From the NCBI GenBank assembly GCA_046485075.1, contig JAWOHR010000150.1, positions 21,918 to 85,917 of the forward strand: a stretch of DNA of 64,000 bases, written 5' to 3'. Positions 2,505 through 50,559 of this stretch are shown piece by piece (within the stretch, counting starts at the first letter, position 1; each line of letters starts with the position of its first letter). A model generated the notes under the pieces. It did no database searches, had not been told where the DNA came from, and saw only the letters and a program-made list of their open reading frames with translations. The position numbers were made by a program, and so were the translations under genes. The DNA is from Bacteroidales bacterium (GTDB lineage: Bacteria; Bacteroidota; Bacteroidia; Bacteroidales; GCA-2748055).

Positions 2505-5500
2505 GTGAAAAGGTTACCGCTCCTGTTTACCCTGATGCTGATCTCTTTTGGAGGGTCAGCCCAGACCTATCAGTTTTTCAATTTTGGTTTAGCCGAGGGA
2601 CTGTGCGACAAATTTGCCTATACCATAAACCAGGATCCCGACGGATTCCTGTGGGTAGGTACCGGCCAGGGCCTTTGCCGGTTCGACGGCAAAGTATTTG
2701 ACCAGGAGTTTCAGGGAGATTCGGTTCCCTCCAGCATTGCTTTTTGCAGCCTGCTCGACTCCAGGGGAAGGTTATGGTTCGGCCACGACAATGGAATGAT
2801 TTCCATGCTGGAAGAGGGACGTTTCAGGCAAATCACACCTTTGGAGGGTCCGCGTTCATCCATACATGCCATCCGGGAAGATGCAGGCGGAAACATCATT
2901 GCGCTTCTGCAGCAGAGTGGCCTGATGATTATTTCTCCCAATCTTGAGGTTCGCTATGTGGGCGGAGTTCCGGGAGACCAGAACAATCCCTTTGCAGGCA
3001 AGTTTCTCAATAATTTTCAGATCACCCCCGAGGGTGTCTTGTTGGTGGGATCAAACGACGGGCTGAGCATCTTCCGCTTTGATGAATCGCTGGATACCTA
3101 TGTTCATACAGGAGATATCGCCGAACTGCGTTACATGGTGGTTCAGGAGATCGTGCCTGCCATCCATCCGGGTGAATTCTGGGTAGGTACAGAAGATGAA
3201 GGGATCTACTCAATCATAGGAAGCGGGTATGACCCCTTGCAGTTTGAAGTCCACAAGATCGGTGAGCAGGCGGGACTGGGATATGCCCGTGTTACATCGA
3301 TCCGGTTTGATGGCAGGCGAAGGGTCTGGATAACCGACTATGGCAAAGGGATTCACCGGATTGAGCTTGACGAAAATGGTGAGATTGGAAACTCCGTTCT
3401 TTTCAGCCAGGAGAACGGCATTCCGGATGAGTACATCAACCAGGTTTTTATCGATGAGGAGGGTAACCAGTGGTTTTCCTCCCAGGGGAACGGAATTGCC
3501 GTATTACGCGACCAGGCATTCACTTTTATTGATATCTGGGATGATGTGCAGTTCCCCGGGGTGAGTGCCATATGTAACAGGGGGACCGATTACTGGTTCG
3601 GAGGCAATTCCAGGCTTGCTTATTACTCAGAGGTGTCTGGGCGATATTCCTTCATGGGAACTGGCGACGGATTACCGGCAGACGATATCACCGCTCTATA
3701 CCTTGATTCAGGTAATGATCTCTATATCGGAACCAGGGAGAGTGGCCTGTATATGAAGGAGGATGGGAGCCTTCGGATCCGTCCCCTGCTTGTTTCAGGG
3801 AATTCACTGGACAATATCGTAAACGCCATTGACGGGAACGGGGATAGTATCTTCGTGGCCACCAATAATGGAGTCTACACTTACAATCCGGCCAACGGAC
3901 ATCGCACCTACTTTTCAACCACCAATGGTCTCCCCCATAACAAAGTGAATGATATCCTGGTAGATCGCGAGGGTATTGCATGGGTGGCAACGCTCACCAG
4001 CGGCTTGTTTGGGATCAGGCCCAATCAGGAGATAGAGGAGGTAATTATAGAAGGAAAACCCAAGCTTGAGTTCATCTCTCTTGCGGAGGATAAGAACGGG
4101 GCTATATGGGCAGGTACCTATGGAGATGGTGTCTTTATGTTTGCAGATGACACCCTGTCGTGGTTCAACGCAGAAACAGGCCTGAAAAATGAATATATCT
4201 ATTCGATCGGTCTCGATCCCAGGGGTTATGTATGGATCGGTCACAGGGAGGGATTTAGCCGCATCGATCCTCAACGAGATATAATCCGAACCTTTGGGAA
4301 AGAGGCAGGTTTTACATCCGACATATCACGCAATGCATCCATCAGCACTCCATCCGGAGGCCTGCTGTTTGGTTCCACCCTTGGTGTGATCAGGTATGAT
4401 GCCTTTCAGGCGAAAGAGGATACCGTCCCGCCAAGATTAAGTCTTAAATCGGTGGTTATCTCAGACATACCCTATGATCCCACCCAGCCCATAAAGCTTA
4501 AGTATGACAGGTATCGTATCCGGATCGATTTTGTGGGAATCAACCTGAGTAATCCCGAGCAGGTTACCTACCAGTATAAACTTGAGGGCTATGAAGATGA
4601 GTGGTCCGATGTTTCCGGGGTACCCTACGCCTTTTACGGAAGGGTGGAGGATGGGAATTACCAATTCCTCCTCAGGGCGTGCGACAGCAACGGGAATTGT
4701 ACAATGGAGCCCATCAGTCTCGAGATCATTGTTAAAATACCCATCTGGAAAGCCTGGTGGTTTATCACCACTGCCATTTTACTGGTTCTGGCCACCATCT
4801 TTATTATTTTCAAAATAAGGGAGAGAAACCAGAAGGCGATTCAGGAATATCTTCAGCGCCAGTTGGATGAACGTACCAGGGAGGTGATTATGCAGAAGGA
4901 GGAGATCGAGGTGAAAAACCGGGATATTACCGACTCCATTAACTATGCCCAGCGGATTCAGGCCAGCATCCTGCCACCTATCAAAAAACTCCATGATGCA
5001 TTTTCGGGCAGCTTCGTTTTTTACCAGCCCAGGGATATTGTGAGCGGGGACTTTTACTGGTATGAGAGGGTAGCAGAGGACCGGTTTATGGTGGTTTGCG
5101 CCGACTCCACCGGGCATGGGGTGCCGGGAGCCTTTATGTCCATGATCGGTACCACATTGATCAAAGATATTTGTCTCAGGGCCGGTATCCAGAAACCTTC
5201 ACAGGTACTCACTACCCTTGATAATGAGGTGCGGGAGTCCCTTAATCAGAATAAGGAGGCCAGCGGTTCCAATGACGGAATGGATATTATTGTGGCCGAG
5301 ATAGATACGAAAAGTTATAAACTGACGGTGAGTTCGGCCATGCGACCTGTGATTGTTTACGCTGGAGATGAGCAGATCTATATCAAAGGGAGTCGCAGCT
5401 CCATTGGAGGTCAAATGGACGAGGACCGGTCGGAGAAAGATTTCATAGACCAGGTGTTCCAGCTTAAGAAGGGAGATATTATATACATGTTTTCGGATGG

Positions 5501-26378: not shown

Positions 26379-27599
26379 ATGATTGCCGCAATTCCTGACG
26401 ACAGTTATGAACGCATCAAAGCCGACCTTGTCAGTCGCGGACTAACCTGCAACCGGCTCCTTGATGAACTGTTGGACCATGTTTGTTGCATGGTGGAGGA
26501 GTCTATGGATGAGGGACTTGATTTTGAGTCTTCCTACAACCAGGTTCTTCGCTCCATTCCTGAGAAACGGCTTACAGAAATCCAGCACCAGACTTTATTA
26601 AACCTTGACAAAAAATTTCAAAGAATGAAAAATTTCACGTATCTGTTCGGATTGACATCTGCGATCCTGACCATACTTGGTTCGTTATTTAAAAGAATGC
26701 ACTGGCCCGGTGCCGGTATCATGATTACTGTAGGAATGATGCTGATCGTCTTCGTCTTCCTGCCTCTCTACTTTATTACCAGCCAAAGGGAACAGGTTGA
26801 AAAAAAGAACCCGGTTTATGCCATTGTCGGTTACCTGACCATTGCCCTGCTGCTGGCCGGCGCAACCTTTAAGGTTATGCACTGGCCGGGAGCCGGATGG
26901 CTGATCTACTCCAGTATTGGCTTCCTGCTTATTGGCTTTGTACCCCTTTATGTGGTCAATGCATTTCAAAGAAGCGGGAAAGAGAAAGCCAACCTGCCCT
27001 ATATTGTGATGTTGCTGGTGGGGATCGCCTGTGTGATGGTAATGGGCAATGTCAATATGGGCAAGGATCTTATTGATATATACCAGAAAGAAGCAGTGGC
27101 CAACCAGCAGCAAACCGCTGCGGCACAGGAACATACCGCCTGGCTGCTGGAGGTGGCCCGGGAGGGTCCAAATGCCGGTCAACTGGCCATCATCTCAAAA
27201 ATACACGACCAGGCCAGGGATCTTCAGGTGATGATCCATGATATGCAGGAGGGAATGGTTGCTTTCGTGGGTCAGCCGGGGGCATCGATCCAGGAGGTGA
27301 AGGGAAAGGACAATAAGAATGCTGGCAGGGAGGCCATCCTTGATAACGGACTGGGACATGCCTTTATCCTGGAGTCCAGACAATTTGCTGCCATGCTGGA
27401 TGAGGTGGTAAAGGATTCCGTTGCAAAAATCCAGATCGGGGATCACCTGGAATTTGCCGGATTGCCCTTCGAATATGAGCACGGACCCAGGGGAGTGGAG
27501 AAAGCCCCGCTGATGAAGAACTATTATAAGAACACCGATGCTTCCAAGGGAATAGCCCTGGCCGAATATGTGGCCATTGCAACCCTGCTGCACCCCTGA
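26379..27599 (+). CDS. PadR-associated membrane protein: cytoplasmic helical N-domain, 4-6 TM with duplicated GldL-like FKxMHWPGAG motif, extracytoplasmic helical C-domain
   Basis: 406 aa. Start is 1 nt after the PadR stop. Motifs GSLFKRMHWPGAG and GATFKVMHWPGAG. C-terminal ~190 aa is Q/A-rich and helical. Confidence 0.6.
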   Translation: MIAAIPDDSYERIKADLVSRGLTCNRLLDELLDHVCCMVEESMDEGLDFESSYNQVLRSIPEKRLTEIQHQTLLNLDKKFQRMKNFTYLFGLTSAILTILGSLFKRMHWPGAGIMITVGMMLIVFVFLPLYFITSQREQVEKKNPVYAIVGYLTIALLLAGATFKVMHWPGAGWLIYSSIGFLLIGFVPLYVVNAFQRSGKEKANLPYIVMLLVGIACVMVMGNVNMGKDLIDIYQKEAVANQQQTAAAQEHTAWLLEVAREGPNAGQLAIISKIHDQARDLQVMIHDMQEGMVAFVGQPGASIQEVKGKDNKNAGREAILDNGLGHAFILESRQFAAMLDEVVKDSVAKIQIGDHLEFAGLPFEYEHGPRGVEKAPLMKNYYKNTDASKGIALAEYVAIATLLHP

Positions 27600-27619
27600 A
27601 TGGTGCCTGTAATAACAGA

Positions 27620-27645
27620 AAAAGGGGTCCGTAAGAACCCCTTTT
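27620..27645. terminator. Hairpin terminator (9-bp stem AAAAGGGGT/ACCCCTTTT, 8-nt loop)
   Basis: Lies 21 nt after the stop at 27599. A/T tracts on both sides would allow it to work for both convergent transcripts. Confidence 0.5.
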
Positions 27646-27838
27646 AACTAACCACTTAAACCTAAAAAGAAAGGACGTAAGATTTGTTTTCAAGGTTTGT
27701 AATCCATATTATATGCCAAAAGATGCAAACTTCAGGAAACAAGCGTAGTAGGTGTTATTTCAGGTGATTGGAATCAGGAATAAAGTGAACGGTTGTGGTA
27801 CCGGCATGTACGATTCCGCACGTTTTTCAACGCAATTA

Positions 27839-28027
<189 letters not shown>

Positions 28028-28471
28028 CTATTTCTTTGTCCAGGTTGTCTTTCGTCCCAGTGCCTTGATCCCCGCAACATACCCTTTGATGTAAAGGTTG
28101 TCGTAGTCGCCATTCTCAAACCATGCGTAGCAATCGTATGTTTTGCCGTTTTTAGGATCGTAAATGGTTCCCCCTCCCCACTCTTTTTTATCGGAATTGT
28201 ATTTGAAATTTTTTAAAATGGTCAGGCCCATCACAGGCTTTTTAGCCAGATTTGCATCAGGGTTCTCCTTGTCCAGCTTAGGCGCACCAAATTCATTCGG
28301 CTCCTCCAGCCAGACGATCTTTCCTGAGATTTTTCCATCCGGTCCGCTTTTGACTTCAATTTTTGATGTCTTCTCTTCGTTAAACCAGGTTCCTTCAATT
28401 TTATTGGACTGTGCGTTGAGGAACAGGGGAATTAAAAGTGCAGTAACAGCAATAAACAGATGCTTTTTCAT
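28028..28471 (-). CDS. DUF2147-domain secreted protein
   Basis: Start set at MKKHLFIAVTALLIPLFLNAQ. Motifs IEGTWFNEEKTSKIEV, GKIVWLEEPN, GGTIYDPKNGKTYDCY. Confidence 0.7.
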   Translation of the reverse strand: MKKHLFIAVTALLIPLFLNAQSNKIEGTWFNEEKTSKIEVKSGPDGKISGKIVWLEEPNEFGAPKLDKENPDANLAKKPVMGLTILKNFKYNSDKKEWGGGTIYDPKNGKTYDCYAWFENGDYDNLYIKGYVAGIKALGRKTTWTKK

Positions 28472-28532
28472 ATTTTGAGATTTAGTTAAGGGAGGCAAAA
28501 TAGTGAATTCGCCCGTGAACTACAATACCCTC

Positions 28533-40232: not shown

Positions 40233-41072
40233 GTGACCCACCCCTATCGCTATTTTCACTTTCTCAGTCTCGACATAGTACTTGGAGCGGTAGCCACCTC
40301 GGTGCTGGCTGCCAGACTCTTTTCGGCAAATCCGGGGTGGGCCTGGTGGGCCTCCCTGGCCATGACCATCTGGATCCTTTACATGGGCGACCATCTTCTG
40401 GATGCATGGAAACACCGGAAAAACAGTCACCGCGAGATGCACAAAGTGATTTTCACAAACAAACGCAATCTGATATACATCCTAGGTATGGTTACCGTGG
40501 TCAATCTGTTCGTGGTATTTAATTTTCTTGACCCCGGCATGCTGAAAGCATCACTGCTGCTGGGGGGGGCGGTATTCCTGTTTTACGCCATGCGACACAT
40601 TTTCAAACGGAACCGGTTGCTATTTATTCCGGGTGAGGTTTTTGTACTGATCCTTTATATGACCGGAACCTGGATGGGCCCCTTCATTTCCCGTACACTC
40701 CCCGTCACCTCGGGCCATATCCTGGTTCTGATCATGATGGCCGGAGTTCTCCTTCTGAATCTTGGTGTGATCTCCCTTTATGATGCCGGGATCGACAAAC
40801 GGCTGGGGATCTCAACCCTGGCCGGAACACTAGGCAAAAAGGCAACCCGAAACCTGATGATCGCCACGGCCATTCTGGTTCTGGTGATGGCCCTGCTTCA
40901 GTTCCTGGTTTATGGAGCAGAACGCGCATCCAGGTTTGCCTTGATCCTGGCAGGAATGGAAGGATTGCTTCTCTGGGTACTGCTGAGGCCCTCCCTGTTC
41001 AGAAAACAGGAGGCATACCGACTGGTTGCCGATGCGATCCTCTACATGGGCTTCCTCTCCCTTCTTATTTAA
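40233..41072 (+). CDS. Divergent UbiA-superfamily-like polytopic membrane protein (function unknown)
   Basis: 279 aa with ~8 TM. GTG start 5 nt after the actF stop. Two Asp-rich motifs: YMGDHLLDAWKHRKN and LYDAGIDKRLGISTLAGTLG. Confidence 0.45.
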   Translation: MTHPYRYFHFLSLDIVLGAVATSVLAARLFSANPGWAWWASLAMTIWILYMGDHLLDAWKHRKNSHREMHKVIFTNKRNLIYILGMVTVVNLFVVFNFLDPGMLKASLLLGGAVFLFYAMRHIFKRNRLLFIPGEVFVLILYMTGTWMGPFISRTLPVTSGHILVLIMMAGVLLLNLGVISLYDAGIDKRLGISTLAGTLGKKATRNLMIATAILVLVMALLQFLVYGAERASRFALILAGMEGLLLWVLLRPSLFRKQEAYRLVADAILYMGFLSLLI

Positions 41073-41118
41073 AAGTGAATATGGCCATTGCCCCTAAAAG
41101 TGAATATGGCCATTGCCC
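41070..41118 (+). repeat. Perfect 24-nt direct repeat at 25-nt period (TAAAAGTGAATATGGCCATTGCCC x2), first copy includes the TAA stop
   Basis: Copies at 41070..41093 and 41095..41118. A partial inverted copy (GGCCATATTC) lies at 41170..41179. Confidence 0.9.
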
Positions 41119-49189: not shown

Positions 49190-50320
49190 ATGTTTGGAAA
49201 TCTTTCATATCTGGCATTACAGCAATACTGGTTTGTCATTGTATCCCTTCTGGGAGCCATCCTGGTCTTTCTCTTTTTCGTGCAGGGTGGCCAGACTTTC
49301 ATATTCCGTATTGGAAAATCAGAATCGGAACGGACCATCATCGTGAATACCCTGGGCCGAAAGTGGGAGTTCACCTTCACCACCCTTGTTACTTTCGGAG
49401 GCGCTTTCTTCGCATCTTTTCCCCTGTTTTATGCCACCAGTTTCGGTGGAGCCTACTGGGTATGGATGGCTATCCTGTTTGCCTTCGTAATCCAGGCGGT
49501 ATCCTATGAGTTTCGCACAAAGGCCAGCAATTTCCTGGGACAGCGCACCTATGAAAGGTTTCTCTTTCTGAACGGGTTACTGGGGACCTTCCTGGTGGGT
49601 GTGGCGGTGGCAACCTTCTTTTCAGGGGCCCGGTTTTCATTGAATGAGATGAACAGTGTCACCTGGGCCACAGAGGTACGCGGACTGGAGGCAGCATTGA
49701 GTTTGTTCAACCTTTCGCTGGGTCTGACCGTTTTTTTCCTGGCCAGGGTATTGGGACTTCTCTATTTCATGAAGACCATCGACAATGAGAATATTATTGC
49801 CAGGACCAAAAAGGCATTGATTTGGAACGCTGTTCCCTTCCTGGTATTCTTCCTGGTATTCGCCGTATGGCTCATGCTCAGGGATGGTTTCGCAGTGAAT
49901 CCCGAAACAGGCGTTATTTTTATGGAGCCCTATAAATACCTGCACAACCTTGTGGCCATGCCCATCGTCCTGCTCCTTTTCCTGGTGGGGGTAGTGGCCG
50001 TCCTGGGTGGTATTGCCAGCGGAATTTTGAGGGATTCCGGCAACGGAATCTGGTTTGCAGGTCCGGGTACTGTCATGGTGGTCTTCTCGCTTTTTATGCT
50101 GGCGGGTATGAACAACACAGCATTCTATCCCTCATCATACGATCTGCAAAGCTCACTGACCATTGTGAATGCATCCTCAAGTCGCTATACGCTGGTGGCC
50201 ATGAGCTGGGTATCGCTTTTTGTGCCTTTCGTACTGGCCTATATCATTTATGCATGGAGGTCGCTGAATAAAAAGAAGATTGATGAGAAGGAGATGGAAT
50301 CGGAGCATCATGTATATTAG
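49190..50320 (+). CDS. cydB: Cytochrome bd ubiquinol oxidase subunit II
   Basis: 376 aa, polytopic. Starts 2 nt after the cydA stop. Confidence 0.9.
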   Translation: MFGNLSYLALQQYWFVIVSLLGAILVFLFFVQGGQTFIFRIGKSESERTIIVNTLGRKWEFTFTTLVTFGGAFFASFPLFYATSFGGAYWVWMAILFAFVIQAVSYEFRTKASNFLGQRTYERFLFLNGLLGTFLVGVAVATFFSGARFSLNEMNSVTWATEVRGLEAALSLFNLSLGLTVFFLARVLGLLYFMKTIDNENIIARTKKALIWNAVPFLVFFLVFAVWLMLRDGFAVNPETGVIFMEPYKYLHNLVAMPIVLLLFLVGVVAVLGGIASGILRDSGNGIWFAGPGTVMVVFSLFMLAGMNNTAFYPSSYDLQSSLTIVNASSSRYTLVAMSWVSLFVPFVLAYIIYAWRSLNKKKIDEKEMESEHHVY

Positions 50321-50387
50321 TGCACAGTAAACAGTGCACAGTGCACAGTGGAAAGTGCTCAGTGGACAGTGGACAGTGCTCAGTGCA
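50318..50387 (+). repeat. Heptanucleotide tandem array, 10 units, fused to the TAG stop of cydB, followed by T7
   Basis: TAGTGCA CAGTAAA CAGTGCA CAGTGCA CAGTGGA AAGTGCT CAGTGGA CAGTGGA CAGTGCT CAGTGCA, then TTTTTTT. Confidence 0.9.
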
Positions 50388-50430
50388 TTTTTTTATGAAT
50401 CATTCGGGTTAGAACAAAAACTTTTAATTG

Positions 50431-50559
50431 ATGTATATAGGAGCAATCATCGGATACCTGTCGTGGCCCTTTATGATCGCGGTCAGTTACTATTTGGTGC
50501 GCTGGGCACTCCGTTATTTTGAAAAACAACAGGCACGGGCAGAACGTACTGAAGAGTAA
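50431..50559 (+). CDS. Candidate 42-aa single-TM small protein (below the ORF-track cutoff)
   Basis: ATG...TAA translated by hand: MYIGAIIGYLSWPFMIAVSYYLVRWALRYFEKQQARAERTEE. One hydrophobic helix then a charged tail. A/T-rich upstream context. Ends 9 nt before the pssA ATG. Confidence 0.35.
   Translation: MYIGAIIGYLSWPFMIAVSYYLVRWALRYFEKQQARAERTEE

Follow-up and report, generated by a model that had tools for sequence, protein, structure and literature searches.

Why should an array of short tandem repeats begin exactly on the stop codon of a housekeeping gene, and why should this happen twice within 22 kb of one genome? The question is raised by a 64,000-nucleotide stretch of an uncultured Bacteroidales metagenome-assembled genome (MAG) (GCA_046485075.1, contig JAWOHR010000150.1; "the window" below means this whole stretch), in which ten tandem heptamers lie directly behind cydB, the gene for cytochrome bd subunit II. 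An initial annotation of the window had read this array, and a longer one of the same kind, as a positioned 3'-end element rather than a microsatellite expansion. We think it probable that the cydB array is instead a hypervariable CAGTGNN heptanucleotide simple sequence repeat (SSR), that is, a variable number tandem repeat, made by slippage, with its gene-side edge set by selection.

The cydB gene (a 376-aa open reading frame (ORF), 49190-50320, forward strand; Pfam PF02322 Cyt_bd_oxida_II, 5e-69; TIGR00203) ends on a TAG at 50318-50320, and this TAG is the first triplet of the array (array 2; 50318-50387, forward strand). Direct reading gives TAGTGCA, CAGTAAA, CAGTGCA, CAGTGCA, CAGTGGA, AAGTGCT, CAGTGGA, CAGTGGA, CAGTGCT and CAGTGCA, all in register, with a run of seven Ts (T7, 50388-50394) immediately 3' of the last unit, just as initially described. 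The ten units share the form (C/T/A)AGTNNN with a consensus of AGTGCAC or CAGTGSW, and Tandem Repeats Finder (TRF) recovers them at period 7 (9.9 copies, score 82) and at period 21 (score 103). Array 1 (27835-28030, reverse strand; 196 nt, 28 units) lies 22 kb away and is made of TAGTGCT, CAGTGCT, CAGTGGA, CAGGGAA, CAGTACT and CAGTAAT units, with higher-order 14-nt blocks consisting partly of CAGTGCT + CAGGGAA. CAGTGCT and CAGTGGA are common to the two arrays, which belong to one heptamer family, and array 1 likewise starts on the TAG of its upstream gene: the stop (28030-28028) of a DUF2147 gene (28028-28498, reverse strand; Pfam PF09917, 2.2e-31) is its first triplet. A lag-7 scan of the 64-kb window found no array of this kind beyond these two, and the doublet CAGTGNNCAGTG, allowing at most one mismatch, has 36 matches in the window against 3.3 +/- 1.8 in shuffled sequence, 32 of the 36 falling inside the arrays. 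We regard it as coincidence that CACAGTG, the consensus after rotation, resembles the V(D)J/Transib heptamer and that GTGCAC looks like a restriction palindrome.

Evidence for an SSR comes from the orthologous site in relatives, recovered via their cydB homologues. The closest of these (L001, 95.5% DNA identity over 21 kb) has three units, TAGTGCA CAGTGAA CAGTGCA, followed by T7; the next (L002, 94.2% DNA identity) has five, TAGTGCT CAGAGGA CAGTGCT CAGTGCT CAGTGCG, followed by T9; and an independent assembly (L003) carries the same five units and T9. The flanks are identical among all four, and the array lengths differ by multiples of 7, with the proviso that copy numbers taken from short-read MAGs are uncertain in their exact values. 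The presence of the array at this site in three independent assemblies rules out an assembly artefact. Among more distant relatives the site holds other things altogether. One (L124, CydB 89% identical at the amino acid level) reads TAG CG CAGTGCT AGA and then CTAACCC-type heptamers; in another (L126, 88%) a TAA leads into about 17 AAATGGT/AAATAGT units, with AATTACC/AATAACT units after them; and a third (L125, 86%) has a TAA and 16 nt before the ATG of the next, small ORF, with no array. Between the cydB stop and that ATG lie 16, 46, 61, 74, 110 or 167 nt, and the difference is mostly heptamer repeats. The CydB C-terminus, ...EHHVY*, ends at the same position in the relatives, and the position of the stop codon is ancestral. 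Over about 220 kb of the clade, all tandem repeats of at least 3.5 copies with a TRF score >40 have a period of 7 or a multiple of it. In these comparisons, the cydB site bears the signature of a hypermutable heptanucleotide SSR and not that of a conserved element.

The intergenic spacers of two of these relatives, the cydB spacer included, also hold heptamer families unrelated to that of the window (L126, 11131-11294 and 13092-13143; L124, 11141-11165), namely AAATGGT/AAATAGT, AATAACT/AATTACC, GCTATTT and CTAACCC.

Array 1 is absent from the orthologous DUF2147 sites of four relatives (L247, L248, L249 and L250; 79-81% amino acid identity). In these the gene ends on TAA or TAG, followed by 16-35 nt of unrelated spacer and then by a conserved block, GTTGAAAAnCGTGCG...CGTTCACTT..., which is also found downstream of array 1 in the window. 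The window protein ends in ..TWTKK*, two to three codons short of the ..TWTKTKLD* and ..LWTKTTL* of its relatives. Array 1 has thus taken over the last two to three DUF2147 codons together with the spacer, its own first unit now supplying the stop, and encroachment of an array on a gene end has occurred here. Turnover at the cydB site (10, 3 and 5 units in genomes that are about 94-95% identical) and absence at the DUF2147 orthologues together mark the array as a microsatellite whose edge is not random, and the opposition originally drawn between a positioned element and microsatellite expansion falls away.

Next to array 1 lies a non-coding region of about 240 nt (window about 27590-27834), between the array and a gldL-like gene (26379-27599), which is conserved in the relatives with 79-81% DUF2147 identity and ends in a bidirectional terminator-like hairpin (AAAAGGGGTCCGTAAGAACCCCTTTT) at about 27620-27646. 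Rfam gave no match for this region, which we regard as a candidate for a small RNA or for regulation at the 3' side.

How might such arrays come to sit so exactly against stop codons? We propose that whole 7-nt units, and also 14- and 21-nt blocks, would be gained and lost through replication slippage or unequal recombination, and that array 2 would persist because the spacer between cydB and the small ORF tolerates added length. The sense strand of CAGTGCT, CAGTGGA and CAGTGCA contains no stop in any of the three frames (CAG, TGC, TCA, GTG, CTC, AGT, GCT etc.), so an array at a gene end is viable only behind a stop or with the stop as its first triplet. A single transition turns CAG into TAG, and a native TAG with TG behind it already matches four of the five core bases; at DUF2147 the array has advanced onto the gene end and gives the stop from its own first unit. 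The direct effect of such an array would be a 3' untranslated region or an intercistronic spacer lengthened by a variable amount. What we observe directly is the repeat structure and its position, length change by whole units, turnover at the orthologous site, a wide distribution and a polar bias in placement; slippage as the generating process, near-neutrality of the array and selection on its edge we infer. This reading accounts for the stop fusion without any function of the array, and a sequence-specific function is probably not needed.

The absence of stops from the sense strand of the core units, in an array that begins at a stop, could also be taken as a sign that the TAG is read through or recoded to give CydB a C-terminal extension. 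The forms with 3 and 5 units are 49 and 35 nt shorter than that with 10, neither figure being divisible by 3, so a read-through product would exit the array in different frames between near-identical genomes, and other relatives have a TAA and no array. We rejected a read-through peptide on these frame grounds, and its probability is close to nil.

The T7 tract raises another possibility, an intrinsic terminator or attenuator after cydB, in which AGUGCAC would pair with GUGCAUU ahead of U7 and the repeat would have expanded in the loop. This is best seen in the three-unit form of L001, which folds into a 7-bp stem (AGUGCAC with GUGCAUU) closed by an 8-nt loop, with U5 behind it (-9.2 kcal/mol for a 46-nt fold); the centroid structure of array 2 has the same pairing of the first unit with the last, and T7, T7 and T9 are found in the three closest genomes, the only ones to retain such a tract behind a cydB array. 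But the first-to-last pairing is weak and is lost in L002, and the fold z-scores of the cydB-site forms are -1.07, -0.39 and +0.67, none of them significant. The middle value is that of array 2 itself, which thus folds no better than its shuffles; its complementary strand is likewise unremarkable, and array 1 folds worse than its shuffles (z = +4.4). A consensus terminator scan found nothing ending at 50388, so the initial remark that the U tract lacks a convincing hairpin ahead of it holds, and the Rfam 15 covariance models gave no match to the arrays at the gathering threshold or at E <= 1. With both folds no better than shuffled sequence and both scans negative, we consider a structured RNA or terminator unlikely.

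The surrounding genes also speak against termination at this point. Gene order around array 2 is DUF4492, cydA, cydB, a 42-codon small membrane ORF and a pssA-like gene. The small ORF (50431-50559, forward strand), whose ATG lies 43 nt beyond the end of array 2, and pssA are co-directional with cydB, and the spacer in L125 is only 16 nt, which places the site within an apparent operon, where array 2 is an intercistronic spacer and not the end of a transcription unit. A U tract at the end of the array, as first described, is present behind array 2 but is not a general trait: array 1 has none, and only 3 of 253 arrays in other genomes are followed by a T-rich tail. A terminator built on the repeat is therefore improbable.

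The peptide of the 42-codon ORF, MYIGAIIGYLSWPFMI.VSY..VRWALRYFEKQ..., is strongly conserved in 6 loci, with its ORF standing directly after cydB in 6/6 related loci, and has no match in Pfam or NCBIfam. One possibility is that it serves cytochrome bd of this Bacteroidales lineage as a small subunit or accessory peptide not described before.

An intercistronic array of variable length could, in principle, be a contingency locus, its copy number altering the spacing between cydB and the small ORF and hence, within populations, the expression of the small ORF and pssA. The spacer does range from 16 to 167 nt among relatives, mostly through heptamer repeats, and one account has it that SSRs in untranslated regions can modulate expression (PMC12721329). 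Against this, there is no link to a promoter, a start codon or a reading frame: array 2 starts at a stop, outside any ORF, unlike an SSR that causes phase variation from inside an ORF, from between promoter elements or from the 5' untranslated region of the regulated gene, and it ends 43 nt before the next ATG. The genes concerned are housekeeping genes and not surface or antigen genes, array 1 has no co-directional downstream gene, and phase variation was judged unlikely for GGGAATC-type heptamers by Rehm et al. (PMC4692102). We hold such tuning to be very improbable.

The more demanding test of a slippage-made repeat is its position relative to genes in other organisms. We scanned one genome per GTDB species for the pattern (CAGTG[CG][AT])3, metagenomes for arrays with a required central CAGTGC[AT] unit, and viral genomes. 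Among the matches listed for the genome scan were members of the Acidobacteriota, Planctomycetota, Chloroflexota, Verrucomicrobiota, Cyanobacteria, Bacteroidota, Deltaproteobacteria and Streptomyces, with CAGTGGT arrays in the majority; the matches listed for the genome and metagenome scans, mostly from other phyla, included no further locus of the source species. For statistics on context we pooled 315 non-redundant arrays among the listed matches of the genome, metagenome and viral scans, with a crude ORF calling (minimum length 150 aa). In this set, the CAGTG strand tends to have its 5' end right at a gene boundary. Exact fusions, in which the stop is the first triplet of the first unit, account for 9/315 arrays, and the 8 of these that come from the genome and metagenome scans are all confirmed TAG fusions. 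Pfam domains are found in 7/8 of the fused genes (enoyl-CoA hydratase, alpha/beta hydrolase, YHS, protein kinase, HlyIII, sortilin/BNR and FtsH). The juxtaposition with TAG in the window thus goes beyond two chance cases.

TAG is nonetheless not a requirement. The stops near arrays are TAG in 24 cases, TGA in 21 and TAA in 10, and while TAG (24/55, against a background of 24%) and stops in phase with the repeat (17/55, p = 0.0013) are both above chance, both enrichments vanish once the exact fusions are removed. Five further arrays begin right after a TGA, and some ORFs end on variant units within the array (CAGTAGT, CAGTGAT, CAGTAAG). A mirror-image fusion, with ORFs ending on the TGA of antisense arrays, was considered and dropped, since only 3/10 such ORFs have Pfam domains and most are therefore shadow ORFs. 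The broader idea of a stop-fused grammar survives in that it recurs elsewhere, as a tendency and not as a rule even within the lineage. In a relative whose CydB is 86% identical (L082), a 17-unit CAGTGCT/CAGTACT array (3045-3161) occupies, in antisense orientation, the gap between two co-directional genes and reaches to within 2 nt of the ATG of the downstream gene, and a second array (3884-3921), also antisense, lies 12 nt past the stop of that same downstream gene, which encodes a 235-aa membrane protein.

Several of these results sit uneasily with a near-neutral repeat, and we give them weight. Sense arrays begin 0-9 nt after the stop of a co-directional upstream gene in 36/117 cases, compared with 4/140 for antisense arrays (Fisher p = 3e-10); and of the arrays upstream of a start, 62/130 with ACCACTG as the sense strand lie within 30 nt of it, against 18/88 with CAGTG as sense (p = 5e-5). 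Pure neutrality does not obviously predict such polarity, and the selection arguments offered above for polar placement are proposals. Both window arrays (2/2) are exact TAG fusions, as against 9/117 of the pooled arrays with a co-directional upstream gene, and the T7-T9 tract has been kept in the three closest genomes. In the viral genomes of IMG/VR, (CAGTGGT)3 occurs in 58 stretches compared with 16 and 8 for two composition-matched shuffles, and is thus 4-7x commoner than expected from composition, an excess that hints at some sequence-specific driver. Slippage and selection on the edge do not fully explain strand polarity across phyla, and some weight is therefore left to a functional reading.

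That reading takes the form of a positioned functional 3'-end RNA element, serving as a multivalent binding platform or as stop-codon context, which would act on translation termination, mRNA stability or coupling to the next cistron and of which the stop fusion would be a part. The non-random position and orientation relative to stops across phyla speak for it, as do the nine further exact fusions, with their eight confirmed TAGs and mostly domain-bearing genes. So does the order of inverted array pairs, which run forward-then-reverse in 6/6 cases, and so does the published grammar of GGGAATC repeats, which is the same (PMC4692102). What tells against such an element is that unit sequence, copy number and presence all vary between close relatives at orthologous sites, and that in L082 the same unit family stands antisense and adjoins a start codon. 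Neither window array has an inverted partner in the window, their RNA is not unusually structured, and TAG is not required. We consider a functional 3'-end element possible but unlikely.

The viral sequences provide an instance of a paired layout. A phage-like contig of 10,085 nt (L254, IMGVR_UViG_3300047586_000106) holds about 17 CAGTGGT arrays, so that almost every intergenic region has one or two; the usual layout is a sense array behind the stop and an antisense array whose end is 2-6 nt from the following start, and one sense array, at 2863, is fused to a TAG. On an mRNA, the sense array after a stop and the antisense array before a start could pair, by prediction, as a stop-to-start hairpin, which would suit the functional element just discussed.

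CAGTTAT/CAGTAAT units are mixed with CAGTGGT arrays in viral contigs, and one could go further and take CAGT-core arrays (CAGTGGT, CAGTGCT, CAGTTAT and possibly the short tandemly repeated repetitive (STRR) sequences of cyanobacteria) as a single pan-bacterial polar class under a sequence-specific process or function, with the window arrays as working instances. Their G/U-rich strand would be fused to stops and its complement to starts, and they could act, for example, as a stop-to-start hairpin for translational coupling or through a repeat-binding protein. We find a unified class of this kind doubtful.

Slippage-generated heptamers, the reading we prefer, have well-known precedents. In most prokaryotic genomes, according to a survey that later papers relate, no class of long SSR is more abundant than heptanucleotide repeats, for which slippage tied to the footprint of the polymerase has been proposed as the cause (Mrazek 2007, via PMC4679880, PMC4692102). 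As far as those accounts describe them, these SSRs resemble the window arrays in having a tandem 7-nt unit, an intergenic site, several loci per genome and lengths that vary between relatives. Array 2 has the traits of the class, namely tandem 7-nt units, a non-coding site and whole-unit copy changes between relatives, and its unit family occurs at several loci of one genome (two in the window, two in L082). To our knowledge, neither the units CAGTGCT, CAGTGGA and CAGTGCA nor an uncultured Bacteroidales host are described in Mrazek et al. 2007. The array thus belongs to a known, functionally unexplained heptamer class, to which CAGTG-type units in Bacteroidales are added.

Two published families come especially close. 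Heptamers of the GGGAATC and GGGGA(C/T)T kinds, from Xanthomonas and Nostoc, vary extensively in length and sequence between close relatives and occur as inverted pairs, and no function was found for them; their G-rich strand is strongly biased towards being the coding strand very near or across a stop, and the non-coding one directly ahead of ORFs (Rehm et al. 2015, PMC4692102). This positional grammar is that of the window arrays, both of which overlap a stop with the G-rich strand coding. The published units differ in having tracts of three or four Gs (G3-4) that form G-quadruplexes (G4), whereas array 2 has no G3 tract and GGG in array 1 is confined to the CAGGGAA units, 14 nt apart, so that on a reading of the letters neither shows the four or more G3 tracts with short loops that a G-quadruplex needs. 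TAACTGA repeats, known from Beggiatoaceae, Cyanobacteria and some Bacteroidetes, stand mostly just upstream of starts, and relatives without them have shorter spacers (MacGregor 2015, PMC4679880). They too are intergenic heptamer arrays, and their reverse complement, (CAGTTAT)n, has the CAGT core of the window arrays. They are, however, sense a few nt before a start, whereas the window arrays follow a stop with the CAGT strand sense; given the different units, the opposite polarity and the 43 nt between array 2 and the next ATG, the window arrays are not TAACTGA repeats.

Two further comparisons are looser. The STRR sequences of cyanobacteria, which Mazel and colleagues are said to have described in 1990, reportedly have the units CCCCAGT, TTGGTCA and CAACAGT. 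They are dispersed intergenic tandem heptamers with a CAGT or CATT core after rotation, but the units and the phylum are others, and the likeness is one of analogy and not of membership. Repetitive extragenic palindromic (REP) sequences and bacterial interspersed mosaic elements (BIME) of enterobacteria are dispersed and non-coding, lie mostly 3' of genes or between cistrons, and have effects that depend on the distance from the stop. REPs are imperfect palindromes of about 35 nt, unlike the window arrays, which are tandem heptamers without significant structure. A literature search with the CAGTGGT, CAGTGCT and STRR unit sequences matched only unrelated papers.

Elsewhere in the window, TRF picked out a 25-nt direct duplication, TAAAAGTGAATATGGCCATTGCCCC, present in two copies that are 100% identical (41070-41118); a similar 25-nt duplication occurs in L001 (1878-1927).

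For cytochrome bd biology, array 2 is probably of little consequence. There is a practical side, in that short-read assemblies break at such arrays and annotated stops can be displaced by them, as in the shortened DUF2147 gene. The stop-proximal, strand-specific placement known for G4 heptamers holds, across many phyla, for a family that is not G4-forming, which argues against G4 structure being what determines where such arrays lie. And the function of heptamer repeats is an old question, dating back to the description of the cyanobacterial STRR sequences; to it this Bacteroidales lineage contributes an evolutionary series at one site, with no units, 3, 5 or 10 units, or unrelated heptamers in their place.

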